From: Acutalibacteraceae bacterium
GTDB taxonomy: Bacteria; Bacillota; Clostridia; Oscillospirales; Acutalibacteraceae
Assembly (NCBI GenBank): GCA_045221075.1
Contig: JBGUWL010000147.1
Coordinates: 1-60,302, forward strand
Length of the DNA: 60,302 bases
Direction of reading: 5' to 3'
In this document: piece by piece, positions 3,741-54,381 of the stretch
How positions within the stretch are numbered: the first letter of the stretch is position 1
Layout: every line of letters starts with the position of its first letter
Made by a program: the position numbers and the translations under genes
The notes under the pieces: generated by a model
The model's database searches: none
Told to the model about the DNA's origin: nothing
The model's input: the letters and a program-made list of their open reading frames with translations, nothing else

Positions 3741-5075
3741 ATGAAAAAAATAGTTACAATTTTTCTCTCTGCTGTGATCCTGCTGTCTGCTTTTATCATA
3801 CCCGCAACAGAGGTCAGGGCAGCGGAATACAACATTGATTTTAAAACAAACTGTACGGCATTGTACCTTGAAAACATAGACACCGAGACCGTTGTCTATA
3901 CAAAAAATCCTGACGAGCGCCGCTATCCGGCCTCTACCACAAAGATAATGACCTACATCATCACCGCCGAAAACGTCAAGGACATAAAAAACACCTATGT
4001 CACCGTCAAAAGCAGCGTGCTTCACATGCTTGACGGCACGGGAAGCTCCATGGCCGGACTCAAGGAGGACGAAAAGCTGACGGTATATCAGCTTCTCCAC
4101 TGTCTGATGATACCCTCCGGCAACGATGCCGCCCTTGTTCTGGCGGATTATATCGGCGGCGGAAACATCAGCAAATTCGTTGATATGATGAACAAAAAGG
4201 CAAAGGAGCTGGGCTGTGAGAACACACACTTTGCAAACCCCCACGGACTCAGCGATCCCGACCATTACACCACCGTCCGTGATATGGCCGTTATCACAAA
4301 GCACGCCCTTTCTCTTCCGGAATTCCTGAATATTTCCAACACCGTTACCTCCGACATCATCGGTGAGGACAGATATCTTGTCACCACCAACTCAATGATA
4401 GACGAGAACAGGGGCGGCGATCTCTACTACAGCCCCGCAAAGGGCATCAAGACCGGCTCTACAGGAAACGATTCGGGCTTCTGCCTTGTTTCTACCGCTT
4501 CAAAGGGCGGATATACCTATCTGTGTGTTGCCTATGGCGCTCCATACGAAAACGACAAGGGCGAGGAATACGAAAACGGCGCAATGCAGGATTCCATCAA
4601 TCTTTACGAATGGGCCTTTGACAACCTGAGCATCAAGACCATCATGGACAAAAACGACCTTGTAAAAGAGATCAGGCTGGAATTTGCCTGGAACAAGGAC
4701 ACACTTCAGCTTGCACCTGCCATCACCTATTCCACCATTCTGCCGGATGATGTTGACATCTCAAGCATCGACCGCACCTATAACCTGCCCGACAGCATCG
4801 AAGCCCCCATCAAAGAGGGGGACATTGTGGGTACCGTGACCCTGAGCTATGCAAATCAGGAGCTTTGCACCATTGACCTTATCGCAACGGAGAACATCGA
4901 CCGCAGCGAGCTGCTCTCCGCCATTGACGCAATCAAAAATGTTGTGACCTCAAAGTGGTTCATCATTTCCGTTATATCCATCGCAGGTCTTATTTTCATT
5001 TACATTATCATATTCATGGTTTACAAGCGCAAGAAAAAATCCCAGCGCCCCGTCAGAAAATACCGCAAATTCTAG
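3741..5075 (+). CDS. D-alanyl-D-alanine carboxypeptidase (peptidase S11) with a C-terminal membrane anchor
   Basis: Start moved to ATG 3741 (MKKIVTIFLSAVILL signal). Active-site motifs are PASTTKIMT (SxxK), PSGND (SxN) and KTGST (KTG). The C-terminal TM is FIISVISIAGLIFIYIIIFMV followed by a basic tail. Confidence 0.85.
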   Translation: MKKIVTIFLSAVILLSAFIIPATEVRAAEYNIDFKTNCTALYLENIDTETVVYTKNPDERRYPASTTKIMTYIITAENVKDIKNTYVTVKSSVLHMLDGTGSSMAGLKEDEKLTVYQLLHCLMIPSGNDAALVLADYIGGGNISKFVDMMNKKAKELGCENTHFANPHGLSDPDHYTTVRDMAVITKHALSLPEFLNISNTVTSDIIGEDRYLVTTNSMIDENRGGDLYYSPAKGIKTGSTGNDSGFCLVSTASKGGYTYLCVAYGAPYENDKGEEYENGAMQDSINLYEWAFDNLSIKTIMDKNDLVKEIRLEFAWNKDTLQLAPAITYSTILPDDVDISSIDRTYNLPDSIEAPIKEGDIVGTVTLSYANQELCTIDLIATENIDRSELLSAIDAIKNVVTSKWFIISVISIAGLIFIYIIIFMVYKRKKKSQRPVRKYRKF

Positions 5076-5194
5076 CCAGCGTGACGCTGGGGTCTCGCCT
5101 GTCGGCTCGGTCGGCGCTGCTGCTGCGCAGCGGTGTCCACCGGACACCCGCGCCCCTCCGGGAGGGAGTTAAATGCCGCATATAGCGGCACTTT

Positions 5195-5225
5195 CCGGCT
5201 GTCTTCTTCAGGCAGCCGGATTTTT
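5195..5225 (+). terminator. Hairpin plus T-run inside repeat unit B1; probable terminator of the upstream carboxypeptidase gene
   Basis: CCGGCTG-N11-CAGCCGG followed by ATTTTT. Confidence 0.6.
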
Positions 5226-5598
5226 GCGCTTTTCATAGTTTAGCGTGCCTGGTGCGTGACCGGCGCAGAGCCTGCGCTCCCGTGTTCGCGGCGGTCGCTT
5301 CGCTGACGCTGCGCTCTGGGCTCGGGCAGGACACTTTTACTCCCGCGGTTCCCTCCCTCAGTCAGCTTCGCTGACAGCAGTCTCGCCTGTCGGCTCGGTC
5401 GGCGCTTCTGCTGCGCAGCGGTGTCCACCGGACACCCGCGCCCCTCCGGGAGGGAGCCTTGAAGCCTCCCTCTTTGAGGGATGAGTGACGCCCCAAGAAG
5501 CGGAGCCGAAGGCGAACGCTGATTGGATTGCGGAACTTATGCAAAGCTGGTGGCGCGCAGCGCCGGAGGGAGTTAAATGCCGCATATAGCGCCACTTT

Positions 5599-5630
5599 CC
5601 GGCTGTCTTCTTCAGGCAGCCGGATTTTTT
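5599..5630 (+). terminator. Second copy of the same hairpin plus T-run (repeat unit B2)
   Basis: CCGGCTG-N11-CAGCCGG followed by ATTTTTT. Confidence 0.5.
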
Positions 5631-5955
5631 GCGCTTTTCATAGTTTAGCGTGCCTGGTGCGTGACCGCGCTGGACGAGTGCCAACGCATTCAGCTCCATC
5701 ACTCCCGCCCGCGTCGTGAACCATAAAGGTTCACTTTGGCTGTTTTATTCCACGTCTTACCTTTCTTCGTATTGAGAATAAAGATGTTCATACAACACTT
5801 CCGTGTCCCGACCCGAGAAAAGCCGTATCCGCGGCACATGACTGCAGGATGCAGCTGAACCGGAGCGCGAAGCAGGGTGCGGCAGCTTGCCGCCGGTGAA
5901 CCTTTTGGCTTGTGCTTCATAGTATGGAATATAAGAAATAAAAGGAGGAATAATA

Positions 5956-12354: not shown

Positions 12355-14406
12355 ATGCCGTCACTTTATAATATTCCGGTCAGTGCCCTTAAAAAGATCG
12401 GTCCCAAAAAGGAACAGCAGTTTGAACGTCTTGGGGTCAGAAGCGTAGGTGACCTGCTGCGCTTTTATCCCAGAACCTACGAAGACTGGAGCAATCCCTC
12501 CGGAATTGCGGACGCTCCGGCCGACAGACCCTGCTGTATCAGAGGACGTATCATCGGAGGGAAAAGTCCGGTACGGCTGAAAAACAAAATGACCCTGTTC
12601 AAGCTCCATGTCACAGATGAAAAGGACTATATGAACATTGTGTTTTTTAACAGGGACTATCTTTACGAAAAGATACGGGACGAAGATGAGATGCTGTTCT
12701 ACGGAACAGTAAAGCTCACATCCAACGGATATGAGATGACCTCCCCCCAGGTCTGTCCGGTAGATCGGGCCATCATCAGGCCTGTCTATCCCCAGACCGC
12801 CTCTCTGTCCTCAAAGGATATCGAAAACGCCGTGTCTCAGGCACTGAAGATGCTGCCTGATCATATAAAAGACCCCATCCCTCTTGAGATAAGAAAGGAA
12901 TTTGACCTTTGCGAGCTTGGTATAGCCCTTCACAACATACACTTCCCCAACACCGCCGAATCAGCCGTAAGAGCAAGAAAACGCATGGTATTCGAGGAGC
13001 TTCTGCTGATGCAGCTGGGAATAATGATGAAGGGAAATCAGCAGCTTGTGACAAAGACTCTTCCCATTCATACGGACTATACTGATTCCTTTCTGAAGCT
13101 TCTGCCCTACACCCTGACGAAGGCACAGTCAAGGGTCATCAGCCAGTGCATTGAGGACATGAAGCGCAGCGGGATACCCATGAACCGACTCATACAGGGC
13201 GACGTGGGCAGCGGAAAGACCATGGTGGCCGCAGCCGTCTGCTATACCGCAGTAAAAAACGGTCTGCAGTGCGCCTTTATGGCTCCCACCGAGCTCCTTG
13301 CGGAACAGCATTACAATACCCTCTCCGCTCTGTTTAAGGATACAGGTATTACCCTTGCCCTTCTGACCGGCTCTACAAAGGAGTCCCGGCGAAGGATAAT
13401 ATCCGACGGGCTTGAAACAGGCAGCCTGCAGGCGGTAATAGGCACCCACGCTCTTCTTTCGGACAATGTAAGATTCAAAAGGCTGGGACTGGTCATCACT
13501 GACGAACAGCACCGTTTCGGTGTGGCTCAGAGGGCTTTACTCACCTCCAAAGGAGAATACCCCCACACCATGGTCATGTCAGCAACTCCCATACCAAGGA
13601 CGCTCGCTCTCATGATCTACGGCGACCTCGACGCCTCTGTGATAGACGAGATGCCCCCAGGCAGAAAAAACGTCCGGACCTATCTTGCAGACGGCGAAAA
13701 ACGAGGCCGGATATACGGATTTATAAAAAAGGAAGTGGATAGGGGTAGGCAGTGCTATATTGTATGCCCCCTTGTGGAAGATAATGAAACGGAGCTTTTT
13801 TCCGCAGAGGAATATAAGAGTAAGCTGATGAAAACTCAGCTCAGGGACTGCCGTATCGGTCTGCTCCACGGCCGGATGAAGGCAAAGGACAAGGAAAGCG
13901 TCATGAAGGATTTCTCTGCGGGGAATATCGACATTCTGGTATCCACTACCGTTATTGAAGTTGGTGTGGACGTACCCAACGCTTCCGTAATGGTGATAGA
14001 AAACGCTGAGCGCTTCGGGCTTTCCCAGCTCCACCAGCTCAGGGGCAGAGTTGGCAGAGGCGCCGAGCAGTCCTACTGCATTATGATATCCGACAACGCG
14101 AACCCACAGACTATCGACCGGCTCAAGATCATGTGCATGACAAACGACGGATTTATCATTGCCGACGAAGATCTGAGGATAAGAGGACCCGGAGACTTTT
14201 TCGGCACAAGGCAACACGGACTGCCGGAGCTTAAGGCCGCAAAGCTGACGGACATTCAGTCCGTTGCGGAAGCTCAGGACGCCGCGCGTCAGATAATCCT
14301 CAACGACCCTCATCTAACTGACAAAGCACATTCCGTGCTGCGCTCCGAAGTCAGGCGTGTTTTCGGGTACTCCGGAAACGGTCAGGGACTTTTCGGTACA
14401 GGATAA
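12355..14406 (+). CDS. recG: ATP-dependent DNA helicase RecG
   Basis: Start moved to ATG 12355 (AAGGAAGG SD). Motifs are GDVGSGKT (Walker A), DEQHRFGV and QLRGRVGRG, with an N-terminal wedge/OB region. Confidence 0.92.
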   Translation: MPSLYNIPVSALKKIGPKKEQQFERLGVRSVGDLLRFYPRTYEDWSNPSGIADAPADRPCCIRGRIIGGKSPVRLKNKMTLFKLHVTDEKDYMNIVFFNRDYLYEKIRDEDEMLFYGTVKLTSNGYEMTSPQVCPVDRAIIRPVYPQTASLSSKDIENAVSQALKMLPDHIKDPIPLEIRKEFDLCELGIALHNIHFPNTAESAVRARKRMVFEELLLMQLGIMMKGNQQLVTKTLPIHTDYTDSFLKLLPYTLTKAQSRVISQCIEDMKRSGIPMNRLIQGDVGSGKTMVAAAVCYTAVKNGLQCAFMAPTELLAEQHYNTLSALFKDTGITLALLTGSTKESRRRIISDGLETGSLQAVIGTHALLSDNVRFKRLGLVITDEQHRFGVAQRALLTSKGEYPHTMVMSATPIPRTLALMIYGDLDASVIDEMPPGRKNVRTYLADGEKRGRIYGFIKKEVDRGRQCYIVCPLVEDNETELFSAEEYKSKLMKTQLRDCRIGLLHGRMKAKDKESVMKDFSAGNIDILVSTTVIEVGVDVPNASVMVIENAERFGLSQLHQLRGRVGRGAEQSYCIMISDNANPQTIDRLKIMCMTNDGFIIADEDLRIRGPGDFFGTRQHGLPELKAAKLTDIQSVAEAQDAARQIILNDPHLTDKAHSVLRSEVRRVFGYSGNGQGLFGTG

Positions 14407-14415
14407 TTCTTACTT

Positions 14416-14570
14416 TTTTCCGATTAAAAGCAGACACTTTTAATCGGAAAAGGCGCCGCCACAGGCTGCGCCCATCTGTGCATACGCCCAGATGAAGTCT
14501 CATGCAAACTCCGATGCGCTGACGCGCTATTAAATGCAGACTATGTCTGCTTTTAATAGAAGTTTAGTAT
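14416..14570 (+). repeat. Copy 1 of a ~155-nt five-hairpin MITE-like element (element E)
   Basis: It lies about 10 nt after the recG stop. Hairpins include TTCCGATTAAAAG/CTTTTAATCGGAA, ATCTGTGC/GC(A/C)CAGAT and TTAAA(A/T)GCAGAC/GTCTGCTTTTAA. Other copies are at 36011..36165 and 48841..48995. Confidence 0.85.
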
Positions 14571-14734
14571 CAGATCCTGTCTGAAATATAACTTCCTGTC
14601 AGACGGCATCTCATATCTGCACCTGCTTCACATCCGGTCAATTCATTACTTGAATGCTTCCCTTGAAGACGCATTAACCTGACTGAAGTTGTTTACTGCT
14701 GTTCAGTCAATTACAACCTGATATAATCAATTCA

Positions 14735-14828: not shown

Positions 14829-17800
14829 TCAGTTGCTGTACGTGGGTTTCTTAAGAGATCCGCCTGTGCCTGTACCGCCTTCGTTAGCAGTAGCACGGCC
14901 GATGTACTTAACATGGAGGAAGCTCTTCCAGTAAGTCTCGTCATAGAGATCCGCAATATACTTCGAGTTGTTGTTGCTCTTCTCAATGAGATACTTACCT
15001 TCACGGATACCGAAGTTATGGATCTTACCCATCTCATCACGGTACTTGACCGCGATGTCGGTCCTGAACTCTACAATCATACTGTTGGCAGTATTATCAC
15101 AGCTGTAGAGATAGAAGTGTGCTCTGTTAAGTGACTTTGAAGCACCGTCCAGTGTACCCTCAAATGCAAACTTGAACTCGGTTGCATACATCTTCACGGT
15201 AGGCTTGGTATAGAGAGGATCCGTAGAATCCCATCTGAAGCTAAGACCCTTGTTAGAGAAGAAGTCATAACGAATGGTAGAAGCTGCGAGGTTACCGCTG
15301 TCAGCAGTGATGTTGACATAGGATCCGTTGGGTGCAGTATTTGTACCGGACTGGAAGGTGAATCCGTTGTGCCATGTTGTAGAAGCGTCAAATACTTTTC
15401 CTGCTCCGATAGTCTTTCCATTAAGATCAGCCTCGCCCTCCACATAGTCACCTATGTTCTTGGACTGGGTGAAGTAGTTCTTTGCAGCCTGGCTGAACAG
15501 GTTGATCTTTCCGCTACCATATACAGGTGAGTCTTCATTCTGCTTAACATCGGCATTATCGAAGAAGTAGGAGCCTGCCTTGATAACATAGGAATCACCG
15601 CCAAAAAGTTCAACTGTTGCCGTGGTGTTGAACAGAAGAGTCATAGACTGATAGGTATTGCTGGAGCTCTTCTTCATGTTGTACATCTGGGTTTCAGAAG
15701 CAGTATCCTGAACAAAGATATCCGTTGTGATCTCACGGTAGTCAGAGGTTGTATTCTTTGACCAGTAGGGGTTGCTGGCAGTGTCAACATAAACCCATAC
15801 TTCATCCATATTGATCTCACTCTTGGACTTGCCGCAGGGTTTATAGGAGGAATCTGTACGGCTCTTTTCCAGGAACTCTACGTTGTAGATGGTGTCTACG
15901 CCGGGATGCAGGGTGATACAGGGATATCTTTCGGGGTTGTACTCTGTCAGCTTTTCTTCCTTGAAACCGGTAACAGAAGAAGAAAGGGTATAACGTACCT
16001 TGAAGTTAGAGCCTTCATCGACCTTCTTCTGGGCATCGTAGAATATCAGGATGATACCGCCTTCAGATTCTGTCTCAAGTCCGTCTATTGCTCTCTTAAG
16101 ATTATCAATTGCAGATATGAGCTGAGCGTTGGTGCTGTCGTTGAGGAAGACTTCTTCTGCAGCAGCCATCTTTCTCTTGAGAGACTCCATAGAGTCATTG
16201 GTGTACCTTCTTGACATAAGACCGCTGGCAAGGTATTCGGGATAATTTCCTCCGCCGCCGCCGTGGATCTTATGGTTAGTCATATAGCTATTACTCAGAG
16301 GAGCGGAAATAGCAGATCTGGCGTCTCCAAGCAAACTATACAGTGTGGTATAGTTTGTGAGCCTTGCTTCGATAGTGTTCAGCGCACTATATGCATCGCC
16401 CTCTGACCAGCTATCAACATTTGTGGTAATAAAGAATGTACCGCCTGATGTCTCCTTGATCGTTGAATAATTGCTGTACATATTAAGCAGACCATTGGAA
16501 TAGTAACGCTGTGAGGAAGAAGAAATACCGCCTTCATCGTTGTACTGACCGATAAGGTTGCAGCCATAGTAGCTGGAACGCAGCTTCTGAATGGCCTTTT
16601 TCAGTTTCATCTGGTCAGATTCAAATTCCACCCATGCACCCTTTGCGCCGTATTCGTCATCAGCCTCGGGATCAAAGAGAAGCATAGAACCTCCGCGGAG
16701 TGATGTTTTGAATTCCATCGGTGTGGATGTACCGCCTTCTGCGGGCTTATTAACATTAAAGGTAATGAAGGGAGAATTCTTCGAAATATTATTGAGATAA
16801 TAATAATTCGTATGACCGTATCTTGTAAGATGGTTGGTCATATTAACGGGCTGAGGATCACTGATGAAAGGTCCGTTTACCGTAGCGGTGAGGTTTGACC
16901 ATCCTTCGGGCAGTCTGAAATATACAGTCAGATTATCACCGATCTGATCCTCTTCCGGATCAAAGGTGTAGAGGTTGAGATTCTGATAGTGACCTGAGCC
17001 GCCGTTGTAGTTTGAAAGCATTTCAAGCCATACGTCTCCCACCGCATTCTTCACTATCTTGGTCTGGGTGGTCGGACTGGAGGGGTTCATACCGGTAAGG
17101 GTAAAGGTATAGGTTGCTTTTGAAGATACGGGGATCTTGAAGTCATACCAGTCAAAGTAGGGGCTGAGATCAGCAAGACCGAGACGTCCGTCGGACTCTT
17201 CGTTTCCGTTGGTACCGCCGAAGCGGTTGCCTGAACCGATTATATGTTTGTTGGAGTTCAGCTTGTTACCCTCGCCGTATACATCCATATAAGACTTATT
17301 CTGTACACGGACCTTGAATCCACCTACAAACGCCATCTTATAATCTGTTGCGTTATAGTCGGCTTCGTTAACTCCGGGCTGGCTATAGGTTCCGCCGCCT
17401 GTACCGCCGGTGCTGCCGCCGGTGCCTCCGGGATTGCCGCTGGGCCACGGCTGCATATCATGAGCGCTGCCCGATCCGCCGGTAAAGTAGTAGCCGTTGC
17501 CAACTGTAAAGGATATATCCTTTGTCTGCTTATCGGATGTACCGTTGTTTACGACAAATTTCTTTGCAGCAGCAGGAGGCTTGATCTTATAAACGGTCTG
17601 GTTATACTCATTGGTCTTATAAACTTCGGTAAGTTGATAGCCCGGGAAGGCCGCGCCTACTGTTGTGCCATCAAAGAAATAGATATGAAGGTTCTCAAAG
17701 TTGTAGTTGTTAGTAATGTAGATATAGTCATCTGCATAAGTTACATCCGGTGTAACGACCTGGTTGGCGATTTTTACAGAGCCGACGGTGTGTTTACCGC

Positions 17801-20800
17801 CTGACGTACCGTTTTTATAAAAATCAAACCCGTTCATCTTACCGTTTTCAATGTCAATATTTACTGTCTGCTTGCCGTTATTATTATTATTGAAGATCAC
17901 ATACTTTGCGCCTGAAGGAGGAATAACCTTATAGATTTTCTGTCCTTGATCGTTAGTCTTGAAAAATTCAACACTTCTGCCCGGCCAGTCATATCCGAAC
18001 TTATTTTCACCGTTCCAGAAATATGCTTTTACGGTTCCATACAGACCATAGCCGTCATCATTATCGGTAAAGTAGATATAGTCACCGTCTGCATACATAT
18101 CACCGATAAGAAGGTCATCTTCATTTGCAAGAGTGGGTTCGGGCTCGGGCTCGGGATCCTCCGGAGGAGCCTCTACCACGCCGTACTTGGGATAAACATC
18201 ATCGGTAGGAATAACTGTGGGAGCTTCGGTGCCGATATTTCTGTCAAGGAAGATATACTCACCGGGTTCAAGCTTTCCGACAGTATAGGGTACTATTTCA
18301 GGATCACCGCCTGTAGCAGAGCCTGTTACGGTAGATATCTTGAATTCGCTGTTCTTATACTCCTGAACATAAACATACTTGAATACAGTGTAGGGATCTT
18401 CAAATGTAGACATTACCAGTTCATCGTTGATCTCGCCTCTTAAAGCGTCACCCTGAAGTGTTGAATAAACGGTAACCATTTTTCCGAAGGAGACAACGTT
18501 AATGTCATTGATAACAGCCACAAGATTATCGTCTGCAACGTTGCTGAGTTTTATGGTTGAGCCGGCAGTAACGCCACTTGGAAGAATAACCTTTACGGCA
18601 ACACTGCTGTACAGTTCTTTACTGATATCCACATAACTGCACTTATATTCGGGCTTGCCCCATGATACGAAATCAGTATCATCAGCGGGAGTAGAGGTCA
18701 TTGAACCTTCGGGATAACGTTCAACGGTCATTCCGTTGGTACCAACGGAATTGTCAATGATCCAGAGTCTGACGCTCTTATTTTCAGTTTTGATCTGAGA
18801 GATAGTGCCCGCAGGCTTCTTAATGGTATAAGCCTTGATTGCAGCATCAAGTTTATCTGCAAGTGCATTAAGCTCTGACTGGGTGGTAACACCGCCTGAC
18901 TTGCCGCTTACTGCATCCGAAACAGCTTTGTCAAGTGCTGTAAAGGTATCTTCTGTGCAGTCGACCTTTTCGGGATTCTCCGCAGTAGGCAGAAGGGTTC
19001 TTGCCTGGTCGATGAGAGGATCAATAACAGATGTATCAAGTGACACAACGGCATGCTCAGTCAGTGCAGTATACTTGTCCTGAAGATTATTCTTTGCGTT
19101 ATCGATAGCTGTCTGACTTGTAAACTTCAGATTCTTTGCAGCTCTTGCCTCATCGTAAGCAGTCTTGAATTCTGAAAGATAAGGCTCCTCAAAATCTGAA
19201 GAGGTTTTGTTATAGAACTCGAAAGTAAGGTCAAGGAGAGCCTTCAGATCGTTCCTGTAGATCCTTGAGTTGTTCATCAACTGAAGATCCTGGGACAGAG
19301 CTGTACATACGCTGTTTACTTCCTCGATCGTAGTACTGGAGTAATCAGCCTGAATCGTCTTTGCACGCTGGTATGCGGAGGGCTCAGGAGTACCTTCGCC
19401 TATAAATTTCTTGTAGGTATCATAGTCGAAGGAACCGTTTGCTTCCATTGCGGTCACGGTATTGTCACCGGATACAACAAGGCTGTTGAGCCATGTAAGA
19501 TCATCACCGGTAACACCGCGGGGTACGAGCTTGTGTTCACCTGTACCGTTAATAATGTCAAGGATGACTTTTTCAGCTGCATAATACTTTTCATCAGCCT
19601 GCTGGATCCTCAGGGAATCTGTAGGACCGGGCTGATTGACAATGAAGTTCTTATCATCAAGAAGAGCACGAGCGGCAATAATCGCATCGGTCAGATACTG
19701 GAAAGACTCGGGTGTATACTCGTTGGGGTCATAACGTCCTGCCTCTGAACAGGTTTTGTTCAGAGCGTTACGGCCGCTGGTGGAGTTAAGACCAACATCA
19801 CCATAGCGGACACTGGGTGTTGCCTTTGTGGTGAAGTCGGCGATCTTTGCATGGATGGTTACATATTCATCCTTGCTTCTGTTTTTGCCAAGAGATGTCA
19901 TTGCATCGTTCTCAGAGCTGTATTTCTCAAGGCTGGAGCCGTTAAAAACAAAGAAGAACTCTTTGTGCTCTGAGCTGTTCTCAATACCGTAAGCGGACTT
20001 TGCGGATCCCACGGCGGAAAATGTAATATTGAAGTCTTTGTTTGTTTCTATATTTGCTGCCCACCAACCGCAGCCTTCGTACTCCATGGTAATGGGGCCG
20101 GCAGTTTTGTTGCCGGAATGGAGGAAGCTCTGGCCTGTGATTGCAGATCCGTCTGCATTGGCATAAGAAACAGAGGGAGCCGCAATGGAGGGTGTAACTG
20201 CATTGTCATCGATTCCCTTCATACGGAAGTGTACGGTTGTCTTGGGGTTCTTTACATATACAAGAACGGTGTCTTCAAGACCCTTCTTTCCGTCCCAACC
20301 GGGGCCCTTGAAATACTGGGTGTAATAGGTTCCGTTAGGTCCGCCGGACTTGGGTGTGTCAAAGAACTCAAAGTAGATGTTTCTGTCGCTGGAGTCAAGG
20401 TACCACAGATGGAACATTTCGTTGGTCTGTGAGTCATAGACGTTCCATGCGCCGCCCGTTGTTCCGGGAGGACAGAGAAGTGAGCCCTGACGTGCGAAAA
20501 TGATATTGAACCACGGAACCAGTCCGGGTTTAACGAAATACTCACCTGTGAACCAGCCGTTACCCATATCGGCAAGAATACCGTTAGGACCCTGCTGGAG
20601 CTTTTTGGATTCGTCATCGGTGAGACGCCACTCTGCATTAGGCTTTACTGCCTCGCTGGAGGTATCATCGTTGAGCTTTTGGACCTCATTTCTGCTTTTT
20701 ATAACAGAGTCATAGAAATAGCTGTTGTCGCCGTTGCTTTCATCGTAATCTCTGTAAACACCGTTATCCACATCATCACGGTATGTCCAGATGTAGTAAG

Positions 20801-21380
20801 TAAGCTCATAGTCCATGCCTGTGGGCTTTTTAACGTTAAGGGTAATACTCGGATCATATCCGTCGCTGCCCTTGCCGCGTGATCCCGGGGGGATCGTAAG
20901 TCTGTTGGGGCCTGAGGAACCAACAGTAAAGGAGACGGAGAGACGAGCCATCTTATTCTTGTTGCCATAGGCATCGGAATAGCGGCTGTATGCCGTCATG
21001 TGAAGTGTGGCAGGATTGGAGTTCACGGCCTGAACGAACTCAACATGAACGTATGTTACAGCGTTTTTGGTTTCGTTAACGTTCTTGGTAATATCAGCGC
21101 CCTGTGAAGTGGTACCGCTGGGATCTTTCATTACCATGTACTCAACAGAAATGGTTGAATAATCATCGACATTTGTCGAATAGTAAGACCGGGCATATTC
21201 CAACGCGCTCTTTACATTCATATAAGCCTGTCTTCCGCTGATATCAACCGATGTTGTCGACATACTGTTAAGTGCGATAAACAGAAGCGAACTTGATATC
21301 AGTATCAGAAAGCAGCTTATTGCAATGGCAAGCGGCAAGGAAAAACCCTTTTTACTGTTTTTTACAACAGTATTCTGCAT
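14829..21380 (-). CDS. Giant (2183-aa) modular pilin-like protein; putative pilus-tip adhesin with CBM25/26-like and FIVAR-like modules
   Basis: The N-terminus KKG|FSLPLAIAISCFLILISSSLLFIAL is a prepilin-type leader plus hydrophobic helix, with Leu instead of Glu at +5. It starts 25 nt after the second minor pilin gene. Internal modules are described in the findings. Confidence 0.8.
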   Translation of the reverse strand: MQNTVVKNSKKGFSLPLAIAISCFLILISSSLLFIALNSMSTTSVDISGRQAYMNVKSALEYARSYYSTNVDDYSTISVEYMVMKDPSGTTSQGADITKNVNETKNAVTYVHVEFVQAVNSNPATLHMTAYSRYSDAYGNKNKMARLSVSFTVGSSGPNRLTIPPGSRGKGSDGYDPSITLNVKKPTGMDYELTYYIWTYRDDVDNGVYRDYDESNGDNSYFYDSVIKSRNEVQKLNDDTSSEAVKPNAEWRLTDDESKKLQQGPNGILADMGNGWFTGEYFVKPGLVPWFNIIFARQGSLLCPPGTTGGAWNVYDSQTNEMFHLWYLDSSDRNIYFEFFDTPKSGGPNGTYYTQYFKGPGWDGKKGLEDTVLVYVKNPKTTVHFRMKGIDDNAVTPSIAAPSVSYANADGSAITGQSFLHSGNKTAGPITMEYEGCGWWAANIETNKDFNITFSAVGSAKSAYGIENSSEHKEFFFVFNGSSLEKYSSENDAMTSLGKNRSKDEYVTIHAKIADFTTKATPSVRYGDVGLNSTSGRNALNKTCSEAGRYDPNEYTPESFQYLTDAIIAARALLDDKNFIVNQPGPTDSLRIQQADEKYYAAEKVILDIINGTGEHKLVPRGVTGDDLTWLNSLVVSGDNTVTAMEANGSFDYDTYKKFIGEGTPEPSAYQRAKTIQADYSSTTIEEVNSVCTALSQDLQLMNNSRIYRNDLKALLDLTFEFYNKTSSDFEEPYLSEFKTAYDEARAAKNLKFTSQTAIDNAKNNLQDKYTALTEHAVVSLDTSVIDPLIDQARTLLPTAENPEKVDCTEDTFTALDKAVSDAVSGKSGGVTTQSELNALADKLDAAIKAYTIKKPAGTISQIKTENKSVRLWIIDNSVGTNGMTVERYPEGSMTSTPADDTDFVSWGKPEYKCSYVDISKELYSSVAVKVILPSGVTAGSTIKLSNVADDNLVAVINDINVVSFGKMVTVYSTLQGDALRGEINDELVMSTFEDPYTVFKYVYVQEYKNSEFKISTVTGSATGGDPEIVPYTVGKLEPGEYIFLDRNIGTEAPTVIPTDDVYPKYGVVEAPPEDPEPEPEPTLANEDDLLIGDMYADGDYIYFTDNDDGYGLYGTVKAYFWNGENKFGYDWPGRSVEFFKTNDQGQKIYKVIPPSGAKYVIFNNNNNGKQTVNIDIENGKMNGFDFYKNGTSGGKHTVGSVKIANQVVTPDVTYADDYIYITNNYNFENLHIYFFDGTTVGAAFPGYQLTEVYKTNEYNQTVYKIKPPAAAKKFVVNNGTSDKQTKDISFTVGNGYYFTGGSGSAHDMQPWPSGNPGGTGGSTGGTGGGTYSQPGVNEADYNATDYKMAFVGGFKVRVQNKSYMDVYGEGNKLNSNKHIIGSGNRFGGTNGNEESDGRLGLADLSPYFDWYDFKIPVSSKATYTFTLTGMNPSSPTTQTKIVKNAVGDVWLEMLSNYNGGSGHYQNLNLYTFDPEEDQIGDNLTVYFRLPEGWSNLTATVNGPFISDPQPVNMTNHLTRYGHTNYYYLNNISKNSPFITFNVNKPAEGGTSTPMEFKTSLRGGSMLLFDPEADDEYGAKGAWVEFESDQMKLKKAIQKLRSSYYGCNLIGQYNDEGGISSSSQRYYSNGLLNMYSNYSTIKETSGGTFFITTNVDSWSEGDAYSALNTIEARLTNYTTLYSLLGDARSAISAPLSNSYMTNHKIHGGGGGNYPEYLASGLMSRRYTNDSMESLKRKMAAAEEVFLNDSTNAQLISAIDNLKRAIDGLETESEGGIILIFYDAQKKVDEGSNFKVRYTLSSSVTGFKEEKLTEYNPERYPCITLHPGVDTIYNVEFLEKSRTDSSYKPCGKSKSEINMDEVWVYVDTASNPYWSKNTTSDYREITTDIFVQDTASETQMYNMKKSSSNTYQSMTLLFNTTATVELFGGDSYVIKAGSYFFDNADVKQNEDSPVYGSGKINLFSQAAKNYFTQSKNIGDYVEGEADLNGKTIGAGKVFDASTTWHNGFTFQSGTNTAPNGSYVNITADSGNLAASTIRYDFFSNKGLSFRWDSTDPLYTKPTVKMYATEFKFAFEGTLDGASKSLNRAHFYLYSCDNTANSMIVEFRTDIAVKYRDEMGKIHNFGIREGKYLIEKSNNNSKYIADLYDETYWKSFLHVKYIGRATANEGGTGTGGSLKKPTYSN

Positions 21381-21405: not shown

Positions 21406-22014
21406 TTACTGAACAAAAGCTATAGCCTTTGTTGTACTGTCATTCTCGATCTTACATACATCACCGACATCATCAAACGAAGTGTTTATCTGGGTCATAG
21501 GAGTATCGGAATCCGCATTGTTCATAACGATGGTTCCGTCAAGCTTATAACCCTCGTTCATCTCGATCACATAATCGACGTACATGAAGCACTTTTCGGA
21601 CAACGAATCATCCTTCTGAGGCTTATGCTTCTTGACCTGTACCTGAACACTCTTTGCCTTATGATAGGAGATCGTCGTTACAACGGGAGGCTGTCCGATA
21701 GCGGTAACCTCACTTCTCACGGTCTTCAATGTTCCGTCGTTATCAAAATAAATGTAATACGCTGAGACATCGTTCAGCGGAACGGAACTGGAATTGACAA
21801 GGGACACTGAAGCGCCTACCTTTGATGCGCTGAGAAGAAAATCCTCTATTTCAAGGGCGTTATCCTGTTCGGTTGAGGTTGTCTGTGCAGTGGAGTAATT
21901 CTTGATAGCCTGCGCCACCATGCCGACTCCCAGTCCGGCAACAATACTGAGCACGCCTATGGTAACTACAAGCTCTACGAGAGTAAAACCACTCTTAGAT
22001 CTGAATTTGTTCAT
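21406..22014 (-). CDS. Minor pilin (prepilin-type N-terminal cleavage/methylation domain)
   Basis: The N-terminus MNKFRSKSG|FTLVELVVTIGVLSIVAG has the canonical G/F-x-x-x-E motif. Confidence 0.8.
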   Translation of the reverse strand: MNKFRSKSGFTLVELVVTIGVLSIVAGLGVGMVAQAIKNYSTAQTTSTEQDNALEIEDFLLSASKVGASVSLVNSSSVPLNDVSAYYIYFDNDGTLKTVRSEVTAIGQPPVVTTISYHKAKSVQVQVKKHKPQKDDSLSEKCFMYVDYVIEMNEGYKLDGTIVMNNADSDTPMTQINTSFDDVGDVCKIENDSTTKAIAFVQ

Positions 22015-22032
22015 GATTTACTACCCCCTTCA

Positions 22033-22578
22033 TCAGCCCGGATCCTGGTGCTCATAGGGAATGAACGAATGGTTCACCAAGGATCCCCTTGAACTGTAAA
22101 CATAAGACTGAACATAGATTCCCTTTATGGTGTACTGTTTTGCGCCCTTCTGCACCTTGCTGGATGCATCAAGATCGATGGTGTACTGTGTCTCTACTCC
22201 TGCAGCAGGGAATACATTCTTGTCATAGTAAAGAACAGTGCTGTCGAAAGTCTTTGCAGCAGCGTGTACAGCATTGCCCGGATCCGAATTCGGGCTCTTG
22301 TTGCTGGCAGCGCCGAAGAAATACTCCTGAGCCTCTGCCTTATCGTAGAATCCCAGCTCGCTGATGCTCTGAAACAGAAGTTCATTCAGCGAACCGCCTT
22401 CAACAGCGCTTTTGTTCACGTCTGCATTATAGAGAGTTGTCGAGTAGCCGTTTGTCATTGCGCTGAGAGTTGATCCAAAAACAATGACAATGATAGTTAT
22501 GCCGACAACAAGCTCTACCAGAGACATACCTTTTTTGGAACGCAGCTTCGGGATCTTTTGCCGTAATCTTTTTTTCAT
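22033..22578 (-). CDS. Minor pilin (prepilin-type N-terminal cleavage/methylation domain)
   Basis: The N-terminus ...LRSKKG|MSLVELVVGITIIVIVFG has Glu5 present. Confidence 0.8.
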   Translation of the reverse strand: MKKRLRQKIPKLRSKKGMSLVELVVGITIIVIVFGSTLSAMTNGYSTTLYNADVNKSAVEGGSLNELLFQSISELGFYDKAEAQEYFFGAASNKSPNSDPGNAVHAAAKTFDSTVLYYDKNVFPAAGVETQYTIDLDASSKVQKGAKQYTIKGIYVQSYVYSSRGSLVNHSFIPYEHQDPG

Positions 22579-22644
22579 TTACTCGTCCTCCTTTTGATAG
22601 TTTGCGAAGTAACCCACTCTTCGACTTATATTTATTCATATATT

Positions 22645-22672
22645 ATTATACTATAAATAGAAATCAATTCAA
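22645..22672 (-). promoter_or_regulatory. Candidate sigma-A promoter of the minor-pilin/giant-adhesin operon
   Basis: Minus strand reads TTGAAT-N16-TATAAT, about 60 nt upstream of the ATG at 22578. The AT-rich context raises the false-positive risk. Confidence 0.45.
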
Positions 22673-22849
22673 TATTTTTCGAGTATCTTTTTCTACAAAC
22701 ATTAACTCAGATTTTTGTGCATCTTTCCGTATGTTAAGAATGGGGTTGTTATTATCAACACCTATCAACAGCTATTTATGTATGTATTATATATAATTTC
22801 AGGCATTTTCATTATTTGTACAATTTATTACCCATCGTTAACAAAAAGT

Positions 22850-22881
22850 AAAAAAAGAGACCGGACAAACGCCCGGTCTCT
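22850..22881 (-). terminator. Strong terminator after pilC
   Basis: Minus strand reads GAGACCGG-GCGTTTGT-CCGGTCTC followed by TTTTTT. Confidence 0.8.
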
Positions 22882-22894
22882 ATGAAAATCAAAA

Positions 22895-24151
22895 CTATGA
22901 GGCTGCGGAATCGGCTGCGCCGCCAACCAGACTGTACATACCGAACATGGGAAGGATCATGGAGATTACCAGTGTTGCAACAACTACACCAATAACAACA
23001 GTCATGATAGGAGTCATCATGTCAGTAAGCTTCTGGGTAGACTCATCTGTCTGGGATTCAAACAGATCAGCCATCTTGTGAAGTGAATCGCCAAGCATAC
23101 CGGATTCCTCACCGACTCGGATCATCGAAACGAGGATCGCATCAAAAACAGGATGCTTTGCCATAGCGTCGTGAATGGTAACACCGATCTGTACGTCGTC
23201 AAGGACTGCCTGGACCTTTTCACGGACAAACAGGTTAGGAACAACGTCTCTTGCAAGACCCATGGCCTTATGGATCGGGATACCGGCATCTGTCAGAGTT
23301 GACATCAGTCGGCAGAACCTTGCAAGGGAACTCTGACGGATAATGGGACCAACAAGCGGGATCTTAAGCTGAACCTTCGCCCATCCCATGGCAAAATCCG
23401 CATTGGTTTTCTTCAATGTTCTGAGTCCGATAACGATACCGGCTATAACAATGATTATCAGCCACCACCAATTTATAAGCAGGTCTGAGAAGCCCATCAT
23501 GAACTTTGTAAGTCCCGGCAGATCGCCGCCGAAGGCCTCATAAACGCCCGCAAAGGTGGGAAGAACGAATACTGTAAGGATGATAACAACGATAATAACG
23601 AGAGCCATCAGGAAAGCAGGATACATAAGAGCGCCTCTGATCTTACCGGTCAGAGCCATATCCTTCTTACATATCAATGCGCACTGCTCAAAGGCTTCGT
23701 CAAGTCGACCGTTTGCCTCACCGGCTTCAACAATGCTGATATAGATAGGGGGGAAACCGGCAAAGTTTCTCATTGCCTGAGAGAGAGTAAAACCACTGTA
23801 GAGATTCTCGTTGATCTCTCGGAGGATCTTTCTCATGCTGACGTCCTTTTCGGAGTCGATCATGATCTGCATCGAAAGAGACAGGTTGATACCGGCCTTC
23901 ATCATCATACCCAGCTGGTTCATAATCATAAGAAGCTTCTTGGGTTTAATCTTTTTGGTATGGATATCGCCGCCCAGGTCCATCTGCCAGATACTGGTGG
24001 GTTCATCATCTCCGCCGCCGACGCCGACGAGGTCCTGAACAACGAGTCCTTTTTCACGGAGTATATTGGTAGCCTCGGCCTGGGAATCAGCTTCGATGGT
24101 ACCTTCTTTTTTCTGGTTTCTGGCGTTCATCGCCACATATTTATACTTCAA
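22895..24151 (-). CDS. pilC: Type IV pilus platform protein PilC (T2SS F family)
   Basis: 418 aa. It has duplicated GspF-type domains and three TM regions, and sits after pilT/pilB. Confidence 0.9.
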   Translation of the reverse strand: MKYKYVAMNARNQKKEGTIEADSQAEATNILREKGLVVQDLVGVGGGDDEPTSIWQMDLGGDIHTKKIKPKKLLMIMNQLGMMMKAGINLSLSMQIMIDSEKDVSMRKILREINENLYSGFTLSQAMRNFAGFPPIYISIVEAGEANGRLDEAFEQCALICKKDMALTGKIRGALMYPAFLMALVIIVVIILTVFVLPTFAGVYEAFGGDLPGLTKFMMGFSDLLINWWWLIIIVIAGIVIGLRTLKKTNADFAMGWAKVQLKIPLVGPIIRQSSLARFCRLMSTLTDAGIPIHKAMGLARDVVPNLFVREKVQAVLDDVQIGVTIHDAMAKHPVFDAILVSMIRVGEESGMLGDSLHKMADLFESQTDESTQKLTDMMTPIMTVVIGVVVATLVISMILPMFGMYSLVGGAADSAAS

Positions 24152-24165
24152 AGCTTTTCACTCCC

Positions 24166-25212
24166 TTATCTTCTTGCGTCAGTATCGCCGATATCAAAGT
24201 TCCATGCTCTTGCGATCTGTTCGGTGATAAGTCCCTGAGCAAGGAGGTTATCGATACTCTTGCTCATGGTGATCATACCGTACTGCTGACCAAGCTGGAT
24301 AGACTGCTGGATATTTGCTATCTTGTTTTCACGGATAAGGTTACTTATAGCGGTGGTAACGAACATGATCTCAAACGCAGCAACACGTCCGCCGGTTGCA
24401 CGGGGAAGAAGTCTCTGAGAGATAACAGCCTTAAGTGAAGTAGAAAGCTGTACACGGATCTGCTGCTGCTGATCCGGCGGGAAGATATCAACAAGACGGT
24501 CGATGGTCTTTGCAGCACCCTCTGTATGTACGGTTGAGAATACAAGGTGACCTGTCTCGGTTGCGGTAAGGGCGATCTGGATTGACTCACGGTCACGCAT
24601 CTCACCTACGAGGATGATATCGGGGTCCTCACGCATTGCAGCACGAAGAGCCATAGGATACGAACGGCTGTCAAGACCGATCTCTCTCTGGTTAATAATG
24701 CAGCGCTTGGGGGTATGAAGGAACTCAACAGGGTCTTCAATAGTGATAATATGGCGGCTCTTGTACTTGTTGATCTCATTGATAAGAGCAGCCAGAGTTG
24801 TAGATTTACCGGAACCGGTAGGTCCGCACATCAGAACAAGACCAGAGTTAAGGTCAAGGGTCTTTCTGATGGAATTCGGCAGGTTGAGGGTCGAAAGCTC
24901 AGGAACCACGCTGTTGATAACACGAAGTACAAGAGCTGTGCCGTTACGCTGTCTGAAAGCGTTGGCTCTGAAACGGCCGCACTCACCGATCTCTACGGCG
25001 GCGTCGGCCTCACCTGTCTGAAGGAAGGTCTCAAATCTTGACTTGTTGAGCACCGCCTTGATAATAGCGGTTACCTCTGCTTCATTCAGCGCAGGGTCAT
25101 TGGTAAAGAACACATTACCATGAAGACGATAAGCCGGATGGTTACCGGATGCAATATGAATGTCGGAAGCACCCTTTGTTACGGCTTCTTTGACAAGGCT
25201 GTAAAAATCCAC
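24166..25212 (-). CDS. pilT: Twitching-motility retraction ATPase PilT
   Basis: 348 aa with a GTG start. Motifs are ASDIHI, Walker A GPTGSGKSTT and GHLVFSTVHT, with PilT-size architecture and no N-terminal extension. Confidence 0.88.
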   Translation of the reverse strand: MDFYSLVKEAVTKGASDIHIASGNHPAYRLHGNVFFTNDPALNEAEVTAIIKAVLNKSRFETFLQTGEADAAVEIGECGRFRANAFRQRNGTALVLRVINSVVPELSTLNLPNSIRKTLDLNSGLVLMCGPTGSGKSTTLAALINEINKYKSRHIITIEDPVEFLHTPKRCIINQREIGLDSRSYPMALRAAMREDPDIILVGEMRDRESIQIALTATETGHLVFSTVHTEGAAKTIDRLVDIFPPDQQQQIRVQLSTSLKAVISQRLLPRATGGRVAAFEIMFVTTAISNLIRENKIANIQQSIQLGQQYGMITMSKSIDNLLAQGLITEQIARAWNFDIGDTDARR

Positions 25213-25327
25213 TTAAATCTACCCCATTCGTTTTAAAATTTGAATAACTCAGGAACACGCCGCAGAACAGGCACAGCAGCCGGCGATAGCGACAGCCGGA
25301 CTGACCTGACTCAGCCGGACCTGAATA

Positions 25328-27034: not shown

Positions 27035-27058
27035 GTCTTCAGCTCCTTACCCGTTTGA

Positions 27059-35796: not shown

Positions 35797-36000
35797 AGTC
35801 TCACCTGTCGGCTCGGTCGGTGATTCTGTACCCCAAGGGCACTTCCTTCGGGCGCCTACGGCAGAGGTGTCCACCGGACACCCGCACCCGCACCGGACGA
35901 TTATGTTTTGGTAACAAGCTTTGTATCGCTGCCTTATCCGTTTCCAAAGCAAAATTGAAAGTGTAGGCTCTCCGTCCGGCGCTTCTGCCTTTGGCAGCCC
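35797..36000. repeat. GC-rich mosaic repeat block R2
   Basis: Contains GTCTCACCTGTCGGCTCGGTCGG, ACCCCAAGGGCACTT and the GGTGTCC-ACC-GGACACC hairpin, all shared with R1, R3 and R4. Confidence 0.75.
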
Positions 36001-36010
36001 TCTGATGCTG

Positions 36011-36165
36011 TTTTCCGATTAAAAGCTGACACTTTTAATCGGAAAAGGCGCCGCCCGAGGCTGCGCCAATCTGTGCATACGCACAGATGACATCTCATGC
36101 AAACTCCGACGCGCTGACGCGTTATTAAAAGCAGACTATGTCTGCTTTTAATGGGAGTTAAGTAT
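36011..36165 (+). repeat. Copy 2 of element E
   Basis: About 95 percent identical by eye to the reverse complement of 48841..48995, with the same five hairpins. Confidence 0.85.
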
Positions 36166-36245
36166 GACTTCTATGACTATAAAATTTTTCTGAACAGATC
36201 GATCACTTGCTGAATCGACTTGATACCCATATTTTTCAGCAAATA

Positions 36246-40334: not shown

Positions 40335-40402
40335 TAGCTTTTCACACATTTTTACAATATTTTTAATAAAAACATTTCATTATTTAGCTTATTTGTTACA
40401 CC

Positions 40403-41070: not shown

Positions 41071-41073
41071 AAC

Positions 41074-41595: not shown

Positions 41596-41718
41596 AGACC
41601 CACCTCCACAGGGTGCAAGCGGTCCGGACCCCAAAGGAGCACCGGATAAATTCACTGTTTCTTAACAATTATGGACATGAAATGGATTATAATGTTTTAT
41701 CAGCCGGGAGGTCATGCC

Positions 41719-48606: not shown

Positions 48607-48840
48607 TATCGGACACTTGGGCTATAAAGATACGAGCTGCGCTGCATCAGCGCCAAAGACCGTTGTCAAGGCTATATGATATCAGTACTATATCAGGAAT
48701 AATAATACCGCCTTTATTGACAGGGCTTCGGAAGGCTGATCCTCAGTCTTTCAGAACAGAGTCAATAAAGGCGGTCATTTTAATATGTTGATTTTTTAAG
48801 GGTATGAGCATTGACGTTTTTTCAGTTCGTCCTGTTCCTC

Positions 48841-48995
48841 ATACTTAACTCCCATTAAAAGCAGACACAGTCTGCTTTTAATAGCGCGTCAGCGCGTCGG
48901 AGTTTGCATGAAACGTCATCTGTGCATATGCACAGATGGGCACAGCCTGGGGCGGCGCCTTTTCCGATTAAAAGTGTCAGCTTTTAATCGGAAAA
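48841..48995 (-). repeat. Copy 3 of element E (inverted orientation)
   Basis: It is the reverse complement of copies 1 and 2. It begins about 6 nt downstream of the stop of the minus-strand gene 49001..49873. Confidence 0.85.
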
Positions 48996-49000
48996 CAGTA

Positions 49001-49873
49001 TCAGTGCCGGAATACGGATGCAAGCCGCAAAAAGACTGCGCTGTGAGCAGGTTCTGTAAAATAGCTCACTGCAAAAAAACACAGCGCCGCCGAAAGAAAC
49101 ACCGCCGACCAGATCACAAAGCCACGGCTGTAGGCCCTGACCGAGGCATCTCCCGACCTGCCGAAGGACAGTACAAGCGCCGTCACAAGATTAATGACGG
49201 GTATCATAAATACCAGCTGCAGCAAAAACGCCCGGGCTGTGGTGAAAGGTTTCTTTTCAGTTCCCTTCTCCTGCTCATGAGCTTTTGCGGTGTCCGCAGG
49301 AACAGACAGAAGTGTTTCCGCCTCCGCCTTTGCCTGCCTGTCAAGCTCCTTTATCCGGTTTCTGTCAAACACGCGTCTGAAAGGAGGCTGAGCGAGAGCC
49401 TCGATCTCGGTGGCGGTTTTTTCACGCCGGTACAGATCATCAGCGATCTCGTAGATTATACCCGACGCCTCAGGCATAGTACGGCGGTTGTCAGGAAAGG
49501 GAAGCTCCCCGTCGGTCCTGACATATTCGTAACCCATTGGGATAAAAACGTCGTTCCGTTCTTTACTCACAGGCTCCGGTGAACTTTCTGCAGTTTCAGA
49601 AACAGGACTTTCCCGGGATATTGCAGTTTCATCTTTGGCTTCGCCCATGATGACCGACAGAGGTCCCGGTGACAGAACAGGCTGTGCCTGCTGAACGGGA
49701 CTGTCAGTAACGTCGGAAGAATTACGGACACTTTTCAGTTTGTTTCTTTTGCGTTTTTGCTTTGACGGGTGCTTGTCGGTAAGCTCGTCGATATCCTTCG
49801 GTGAAAGAGCCGAGGTCCCGTCGCACACCATTGCGGCAACCGAGGGGTCAATATTGATGGGATCATGTATCAT
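49001..49873 (-). CDS. Hypothetical protein: disordered basic/acidic N-terminal region and two C-terminal TM helices
   Basis: ATG 49873 is preceded by GGAGGA. The TM segments are LLQLVFMIPVINLVTALVL and FVIWSAVFLSAALCFFAVSYF. No family recognised. Confidence 0.55.
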   Translation of the reverse strand: MIHDPINIDPSVAAMVCDGTSALSPKDIDELTDKHPSKQKRKRNKLKSVRNSSDVTDSPVQQAQPVLSPGPLSVIMGEAKDETAISRESPVSETAESSPEPVSKERNDVFIPMGYEYVRTDGELPFPDNRRTMPEASGIIYEIADDLYRREKTATEIEALAQPPFRRVFDRNRIKELDRQAKAEAETLLSVPADTAKAHEQEKGTEKKPFTTARAFLLQLVFMIPVINLVTALVLSFGRSGDASVRAYSRGFVIWSAVFLSAALCFFAVSYFTEPAHSAVFLRLASVFRH

Positions 49874-54216: not shown

Positions 54217-54278
54217 CAGACAATTCCCCCCAAAAGGTTTCTGTTGATATATATGCGCGCAGCCGGTTTTGATACTGC

Positions 54279-54320
54279 TTTCTGATTAAAATCAGAAATT
54301 TTTAATCAGAAAGTCGCCGC
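54279..54320. repeat. Partial, diverged copy of element E (first hairpin plus GTCGCCGC)
   Basis: TTTCTGATTAAAA-N8-TTTTAATCAGAAA is a perfect 13-bp stem. C-to-T and G-to-A changes relative to the full copies keep the pairing. Confidence 0.6.
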
Positions 54321-54381
54321 TTGACACATCCCGAAAAAAAGCAGCCATTCCCTGAGGAATGACCGCATAATGTCTATAATA

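Follow-up and report, generated by a model that had tools for sequence, protein, structure and literature searches.

Element E, a 159-bp MITE-like repeat with a conserved multi-hairpin fold in uncultured Oscillospirales-type Clostridia

Introduction

The closest described counterparts of the element analysed here are small, structured intergenic repeats of other bacteria. The bcr1 repeat of Bacillus cereus is a transcribed repeat of ~155 bp that carries compensatory changes (PMC3184786); it is flanked by 5-bp TTTAT sequences, a site-specific mechanism has been proposed for it, and no cognate transposase is known (PMC3184786, PMC6542083). The Correia elements of Neisseria are listed as a MITE (PMC3184786), and ERIC/IRU, RUP, BOX, and SPRITE are small structured intergenic repeats that are co-transcribed and clustered with other families (PMC3184786, PMC10969869). 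REP and REPIN sequences consist of palindromes of 20–40 bp tagged with GTAG or CGTC and show no duplication (PMC3733652). With respect to target choice, the IS1031 group of the IS5 family prefers a TNA target (PMC1676026), and the related PIF/Harbinger transposons produce TWA duplications (PMC4482050).

We analysed a 60,302-nt stretch of DNA (contig JBGUWL010000147.1, hereafter the window), which is the whole contig of a sparsely sampled Acutalibacteraceae organism. A first-pass annotation, made from the sequence alone, had described a ~155-nt repeat of five hairpins in it as MITE-like; the repeat is here called element E. In size, host phylum, and conserved fold, element E is closest to bcr1: both are non-coding intergenic repeats of ~155 bp from Firmicutes, with short direct-repeat flanks and a multi-helix fold with compensatory changes. 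The flanks of bcr1 are, however, 5-bp TTTAT, whereas those of element E are 3-bp TNA adjoining clear inverted ends, and the hosts are the Bacillus cereus group and Oscillospirales, respectively; membership in the bcr1 type was rejected on the basis of these flanks and hosts.

Correia elements duplicate TA, and their 26-bp inverted ends form one long hairpin, in contrast to the TNA target, five local hairpins, and junction of element E. The two are alike in having long and short forms (~155/~105 bp and 159/108 nt, respectively), inverted ends, and locations near genes, and we take the Correia end sequence to be unlike the ends of element E. ERIC and RUP are associated with TA duplication of the IS630 type, and BOX is modular and without duplication. 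Like ERIC/IRU, RUP, BOX, and SPRITE, element E is a small structured repeat adjoining other repeat families, but there is no apparent sequence relation to them. Membership in the IS630-type MITEs (Correia, ERIC, and RUP) was rejected, because a TA duplication, which defines them, is a much less likely reading of the flanks than a 3-bp one. The duplicated 3-bp T-N-A or T-W-A triplet is shared with the IS1031 group and with PIF/Harbinger transposons and Tourist MITEs; IS1031 and PIF/Harbinger elements are autonomous and encode a DDE transposase, whereas element E is non-coding.

Results and Discussion

Copies in the window and their limits

Sequence comparison within the 60-kb window recovered three full copies and one partial copy at the places already annotated. 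The 43-nt 5' block occurred three times in the window (0 expected), and the 13-mer ATTAAAAGCAGAC, with up to two mismatches, occurred 13 times (1.7 expected). When a covariance model of the element family was run over the whole window with filters off, no copy was detected beyond the three full copies and the fragment. The limits first assigned to the copies had to be corrected: alignment with copies from other sources placed the true ends at 5'-TACT...AGTA-3' (159 nt), which moves the 5' boundary outward by 5 nt and the 3' boundary inward by 1 nt, and similarity between copies ends exactly at TACT and AGTA. The corrected copies, with their covariance model scores, are as follows.

14411..14569, + strand: full copy 1, 159 nt (180.3 bits)
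36006..36164, + strand: full copy 2, 159 nt (180.4 bits)
48842..49000, − strand: full copy 3, 159 nt (185.9 bits)
54273..54321, + strand: diverged 5' fragment (28.5 bits)

In the fragment, the TACT tip is followed by hairpin 1, which has two compensated pairs, and by the first part of hairpin 2; TGA (54270–54272) lies directly before it, and its 3' end is not recognisable. The pairwise identity of the window copies was 91–94%, and that between the window copies and those of a rumen MAG (see below) was 91–98%.

Terminal inverted repeats

The ends of element E are inverted repeats, as had been annotated, with TACT-N8-ATTAAAAGCAGAC at either end. The sequence is TACT-GTTTTCCG-ATTAAAAGCWGAC at the 5' end and TACT-TAACTCCC-ATTAAAAGCAGAC at the reverse-complemented 3' end, so that each repeat is made up of a 4-nt tip, a poorly matched 8-nt spacer, and the 13-mer; the end pattern was written as TACT-N8-ATTAAAAGYAGAC. 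In copy 2, approximately 20 of 25 positions match between the left end and the reverse complement of the right end.

36006..36030, + strand: left terminal inverted repeat of copy 2, TGCT (TACT in the other copies) + 8 nt + 13-mer ATTAAAAGCTGAC
36140..36164, + strand: right terminal inverted repeat of copy 2, GTCTGCTTTTAAT + 8 nt + AGTA

The 13-mer had been counted four times per copy. Three of these occurrences are full, whereas the fourth, in the right arm of hairpin 1, consists of the common part ATTAAAAG only. The ends of a copy from a Faecousia MAG (contig L003) read TACT-N8-ATTAAAAGTAGAC on the left and, reverse-complemented, TACT-N8-ATAGGAAGCAGAG on the right. Since this copy keeps its ends and a TAA duplication despite a different interior, the tip and the 13-mer constitute the core common to the family.

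Target-site duplication

Target-site duplications, proposed in the first-pass annotation as a check, are present as 3-bp T-N-A direct repeats. Such a repeat flanked every complete copy in the window and in eight other contigs and was perfect in eight of nine cases (TGA in three, TAA in four, and TTA in one); the ninth copy, with TCT/TCA, is one base off.

14408..14410: left duplication of copy 1, TCT (one base different from the right side)
14570..14572: right duplication of copy 1, TCA
36003..36005: left duplication of copy 2, TGA
36165..36167: right duplication of copy 2, TGA
49001..49003, − strand: left duplication of copy 3, TGA (the stop codon of ORF 49001–49924)
48839..48841, − strand: right duplication of copy 3, TGA
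Contig L005: TAA left, TAA right
Contig L006: TTA left, TTA right
Contig L007: TAA left, TAA right
Contig L008: TGA left, TGA right
Contig L003: TAA left, TAA right
Contig L013: TAA left, TAA right

When truncated copies were included, the left flanks had T at position −3 in 13 of 13 cases and A at position −1 in 12 of 13, and the right flanks were TNA in 10 of 10. The middle base of the triplet differs among copies and was the same on the left and right in all nine complete copies. Because these repeats are direct rather than inverted and vary between copies, the flanking triplets are derived from the target rather than from the element. The two bases before the TNA target are biased toward W and then C/T. 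A TA duplication was considered and rejected, as it would demand TNA-TA-TNA with a matching N at every target, and a 3-bp TNA duplication is simpler.

One flank resembles the element itself. At positions 3966–3978 of L005, the 10 nt ending in the left TAA duplication read TTCCGATTAA, identical to the start of hairpin 1, and the match does not go on in the right flank. An older copy may have received a nested insertion here, or the element may prefer its own end sequence.

A conserved fold of five hairpins and a long-range helix

The five hairpins fold as originally described, with minimum free energies of −65 to −75 kcal/mol (z ~ −9 versus dinucleotide shuffles), and the opposite strand folds equally well. 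The consensus fold contains two further pairings that the first-pass annotation had missed, namely a long-range helix (AACTCC/GGAGTT) enclosing hairpins 4 and 5 and a pairing of the tips (TACT/AGTA). The helices of copy 2 are listed below.

36011..36046, + strand: hairpin 1, TTTTCCGATTAAAAG / 6-nt loop / CTTTTAATCGGAAAA
36047..36067, + strand: hairpin 2, GGCGCCGCC-CGA-GGCTGCGCC; two pairs with compensatory change
36068..36089, + strand: hairpin 3, ATCTGTGC-ATAC-GCACAGAT; three pairs with compensatory change
36102..36107, + strand: 5' arm of the long-range helix, AACTCC, with partner GGAGTT at 36154–36159; A-U to G-C in L006 and L007
36111..36122, + strand: hairpin 4, GCGC-TGAC-GCGT core
36123..36153, + strand: hairpin 5, ATTAAAAGCAGAC-TAT-GTCTGCTTTTAAT; two pairs with compensatory change

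The outer arm of hairpin 5 in copy 2 is the 13-mer of the right inverted repeat. Hairpin 1 was invariant in all copies, partly because the search pattern demanded it. In the partial copy, the stem is perfect by virtue of paired changes, as had been noted, and is 14 bp long with two changed pairs (T-A to C-G and C-G to T-A) rather than 13 bp with one.

Covariation was measured on a structure-blind alignment of seven copies, in which 96.7% of cells were paired. Eight pairs had changed on both sides, compared with 4.0 ± 1.3 in shuffled alignments (3 of 500 reached the observed value) and with 0–2 when the partners were slid by 1–3 columns; these changes are located in hairpins 2, 3, and 5 and in the long-range helix, and they represent approximately three independent diverged lineages. 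Variable columns were rarer in stems than outside them (28/96 versus 22/40, p = 0.006, with columns fixed by the search pattern excluded). The fold of five local hairpins and one long-range helix is kept in copies from hosts with 43–55% GC. The earlier suggestion that the structure is under selection is supported.

Compensatory change has preserved the hairpins and the long-range helix from one subfamily to another, and the fold is therefore important to the element. Mismatches of the G-T and A-C types are balanced (10 versus 8), and this balance is uninformative as to RNA strand and as to RNA versus DNA; likewise, no strand bias of wobble pairs was found across the copies. Most likely the fold would serve recognition by the transposase or a DNA state that is single-stranded or cruciform, and an effect on transcripts that carry the element is possible. 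A CUGAUGA resembling a hammerhead motif at the 5' end of copy 2 was dismissed, being formed by the variable duplication.

Distribution, variants, and decay

Copies were also found outside the window, at no fewer than 10 further sites in eight other contigs from genomes and metagenomes. The exact hairpin 1 pattern was scanned against one genome per species (185,579 species) and matched only two MAGs, with four contigs from a rumen Acutalibacteraceae MAG (in three of which the match lay at the contig end) and a fifth from a Faecousia MAG. The rumen MAG carries at least five copies, three of which lie at contig ends. Its contig L002 holds a second copy (L002b), found by the covariance model, that is 5'-truncated and decayed (7 of 45 pairs not Watson-Crick). 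The Faecousia copy (L003, 431–575) represents a subfamily with a different interior and without hairpin 5.

A metagenome scan on hairpin 1 yielded three diverged copies (L006, L007, and L008) that were 79–85% identical to the window copies and lay on contigs with 43%, 55%, and 60% GC; an earlier metagenome scan anchored on the element centre and 3' arm gave no match. The copy in L008 (86–193, − strand) is a 108-nt short form with intact ends and a TGA duplication, from which ~50 nt comprising the right arm of hairpin 2, hairpin 3, and the centre are missing. The copy in L013 came to light when the translated reverse strand was used in an exhaustive protein search (one real match), and a word-indexed peptide search with the open reverse frame of the element found nothing. 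The known hosts are accordingly Acutalibacteraceae, Faecousia, and relatives, all uncultured Clostridia of the rumen or gut.

Among viral contigs, the hairpin 1 and hairpin 5 patterns had no matches. The 19-mer end pattern TTTCCGATTAAAAGYNGAC had 10 (L014–L023), which correspond to three unrelated phage loci that had each been sampled repeatedly; the covariance model found nothing of the rest of the element in them, and they were rejected as chance matches. Blastn searches of plasmids and phages with the element gave no match. No Rfam family matches element E: the Rfam covariance models gave nothing at gathering score in the window and, on the copies, no more than chance-level hits with E values of up to 10. 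With no match in the libraries searched (Rfam, phages, plasmids, and viral contigs), and belonging to none of the repeat families compared above, element E is regarded as a new MITE family.

Coding capacity and the search for an autonomous partner

No open frame is maintained across the diverged copies, and a coding function was ruled out by the closure of the frame in L006, L007, and L008. One frame of the reverse strand is stop-free in some copies, and false ORFs run through it; these include the 159-aa P0127 (L013, 45–524) and a 224-aa ORF in the window (48908–49582, + strand).

Neither the window nor the sequences next to the other copies contained a transposase gene, and no recombinase gene was found near the copies. 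Scans with the end patterns revealed no autonomous element with the same ends in the window, the other copy-bearing loci, the species genomes, the metagenomes, or the viral contigs.

Genomic context and stop codons

The copies occur in either orientation at unrelated intergenic sites among ordinary chromosomal genes. Two of them lie at stop codons, in line with the first-pass annotation: copy 1 starts 4 nt after the recG stop codon (TAA, 14404–14406), and copy 3 lies in sense directly after the TGA of ORF 49001–49924, both between convergent genes. Copy 2 occupies a spacer of 850 nt, where it is flanked by two minus-strand genes and runs antisense to both, and the fragment lies in a promoter region. 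Of the copies in other contigs, that in L007 lies beside a gene start, and that in L008 follows the stop codon of a gene in sense and precedes a strong terminator hairpin.

At 2 of 13 insertion sites, those of copy 3 (ORF 49001–49924) and L008 (ORF of ≥324 codons), the triplet that was duplicated serves as the stop codon of a long sense ORF. Because each of the four TNA triplets is a stop codon on one strand and the duplication restores the triplet, insertion on a stop codon is harmless. The TNA target thus explains why copies abut stop codons, and these contacts are better explained by it than by a 3'-UTR function. Enrichment at stop codons was rejected, since 2 of 13 sites is near expectation if about one-tenth of spacer TNA triplets are stop codons (a rough estimate rather than a computed value).

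The window genes include fakA, recG, a gene for a 2183-aa CBM26 protein, type IV pilus genes, and glyA, as well as a malQ-glgP fusion, D-Ala-D-Ala carboxypeptidase genes, maf, and rsmI, and the genes beside the copies in other contigs are equally ordinary. Exact-protein look-ups of the window genes found none on record. The nearest relatives are distant (the best match to RecG is 64% and that to a 307-aa protein 47% identical), and precise empty sites were not obtained for this reason; no paralogous empty sites were found either. The order of fakA, recG, and the giant gene is kept in the nearest relative (RecG 62% identical). At its syntenic recG locus (65 kb searched with the covariance model), the element is absent and the spacer sequence is unrelated and not alignable, which indicates that the recG 3' region does not include the element as a conserved component.

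Nature of element E and alternative explanations

Element E is very probably a 159-bp non-coding, non-autonomous DNA transposon (MITE) of uncultured Oscillospirales-type Clostridia, to judge from sequence comparison. It is non-coding and well below ~500 bp, has terminal inverted repeats, is flanked by a target-site duplication of fixed length, and occurs at multiple dispersed and unrelated sites. The core of the first-pass reading, a MITE-like repeat with inverted ends, is therefore upheld by the duplications, the dispersal, and the ends. Some observations speak against it: the window copies are only 91–94% identical, the duplication of copy 1 is mutated, and the hairpin 1 pattern matched nothing but MITE copies in 185,579 species genomes. 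Many accepted MITE families are likewise without a known autonomous partner. We also know of no obvious need for five conserved internal hairpins in an ordinary MITE.

On a rival view, element E is chiefly a structured RNA, with mobility serving only its spread: it might stabilise or terminate transcripts as part of the 3'-UTR, act as a small RNA, or be guide-like for its own mobilising enzyme. Such an RNA would suit the compensatory changes seen in four helices, one of which is the long-range helix and no simple palindrome, as would the depletion of substitutions in stems and the position of copy 1, copy 3, and L008 in sense just after a gene and upstream of any terminator; bcr1 of Bacillus cereus provides a precedent (PMC3184786). 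Hairpin 5 (AAAAGCAGAC-TAT-GTCTGCTTTT) resembles a two-way terminator and was flagged as such in copy 1, but copy 1 was the only one of the three window copies in which it was flagged; in copies 2 and 3 its T run pairs with the A run. The copies have mixed orientations relative to their neighbours: copy 2 and the fragment are antisense or lie in promoter regions, and L007 is found next to a gene start. Moreover, neither strand is favoured by the G-T and A-C mismatches (10 versus 8), both strands fold equally well, and no Rfam family matches even at E = 10. We consider a primary RNA function unlikely. A more specific proposal, in which the element would be a horizontally spreading mobile RNA module whose fold, once inserted at a stop codon or just behind one, sets mRNA 3'-end stability or termination in the transcript, or else acts as an RNA cofactor of its own transposase, appears decidedly unlikely; if it were true, TNA targeting would be an adaptation that permits harmless docking onto stop codons.

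Other modes of movement were weighed against the same flanks and ends. Site-specific recombination, either bcr1-like at TTTAT or by a tyrosine/Xer-type recombinase acting on hairpin 1, would account for the two inverted arms around a 6-nt spacer in that hairpin, which is the layout of a recombinase core and the most conserved part of the element, and for a short, semi-specific target. Such a core should, however, be one fixed shared sequence, whereas the triplets differ freely in their middle base, which is duplicated in the way that a staggered cut would leave it. The ends also form inverted repeats and no recombinase gene was found nearby, and we regard this mode as very improbable. Mobilisation by a Y1/HUH single-strand transposase, which would make element E an IS200/IS605-derived palindrome or a RAYT-served REP/REPIN with its end hairpins as recognition structures, is suggested by conserved hairpins just inside both ends, a hallmark of IS200/IS605 ends and REPINs. 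Yet IS200/IS605 elements and REPINs have neither target-site duplications nor inverted ends and lie next to one fixed motif, whereas the triplets of element E (TGA, TAA, TTA, and TCA) vary by copy while matching left to right, and its tips (TACT/AGTA) are inverted. Membership in the IS200/IS605-derived palindromes was rejected on account of these variable matched triplets and inverted tips, and membership in REP/REPIN because no GTAG or CGTC tag lies beside the palindromes and a duplication is present; we give the Y1/HUH mode scarcely any credence. Finally, the 13-mer, present three to four times per copy in alternating orientation, is reminiscent of operators, and the element might have been a host-encoded regulatory or protein-binding array multiplied by local duplication rather than transposition. 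The sharp common limits with unrelated flanks, the target duplications, the occurrence in different organisms beside unrelated genes, and the absence from the syntenic locus of the relative render the probability of such an array close to negligible.

Under the MITE interpretation, a DDE transposase supplied in trans would bind the 13-mer sites, whose palindromic arrangement at each end suggests binding as a dimer. The enzyme would then make 3-nt staggered cuts at TNA and the element would be pasted in, by either a cut-and-paste or a copy-and-paste route. On the basis of the TNA preference, the mobilising enzyme is probably an IS5/IS1031-type DDE transposase. The TNA target is the only clue to this enzyme, and the IS1031-type assignment is weak because IS1031-group elements end in GAG, whereas element E ends in TAC.

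Element E constitutes a bounded, named repeat family for the poorly sampled Clostridia of the rumen and gut, with practical consequences: it breaks MAG assemblies, as seen from the three of five copies at contig ends in one MAG, and yields false gene calls (P0127 and ORF 48908–49582). It also offers a clean bacterial example of TNA targeting and shows how stop-codon insertion can be harmless, and its conserved multi-hairpin fold makes it possible to test why internal structure is retained in some MITEs. The covariance model can be used to count copies and to seek the transposase in complete genomes.

Other repeats and genes in the window

Other G+C-rich intergenic repeat families form "repeat islands" of 30–220-nt blocks, with 2–5 copies each, at 5075–5900, 35797–35889, 40403–40920, 45190–45760, and 59087–59306. 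Members of these families adjoin copies of element E in the rumen MAG (the right flank in L005, and L002), and one 36-nt block is also present in the nearest relative (L010 and L011). The repeat region at 40350–41100 had no Rfam match. Just downstream of a cinA-like gene (41074–41655, − strand) lies a run of short TAACTCCTCACTCC-like repeats (40976–41074). Five to six tandem 15-nt units (GCTNTCGTCAGTNGT) at 1472–1561 fall within the minus-strand ORF 1025–1756, which has a weak match to CBM26 starch-binding modules, and the units look like a repetitive linker.

Regarding the genes, the 2183-aa CBM26-module protein (14829–21380, − strand) adjoins genes for pilin-like proteins and type IV pilus assembly (21406–28000), which include T2SSE, T2SSF, and a prepilin peptidase; the gene order of this whole region is also found in the nearest relative (L010 and L011). 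A single 1295-aa ORF (36337–40224, − strand) encodes a 4-alpha-glucanotransferase (MalQ) fused to a glycogen/maltodextrin phosphorylase.
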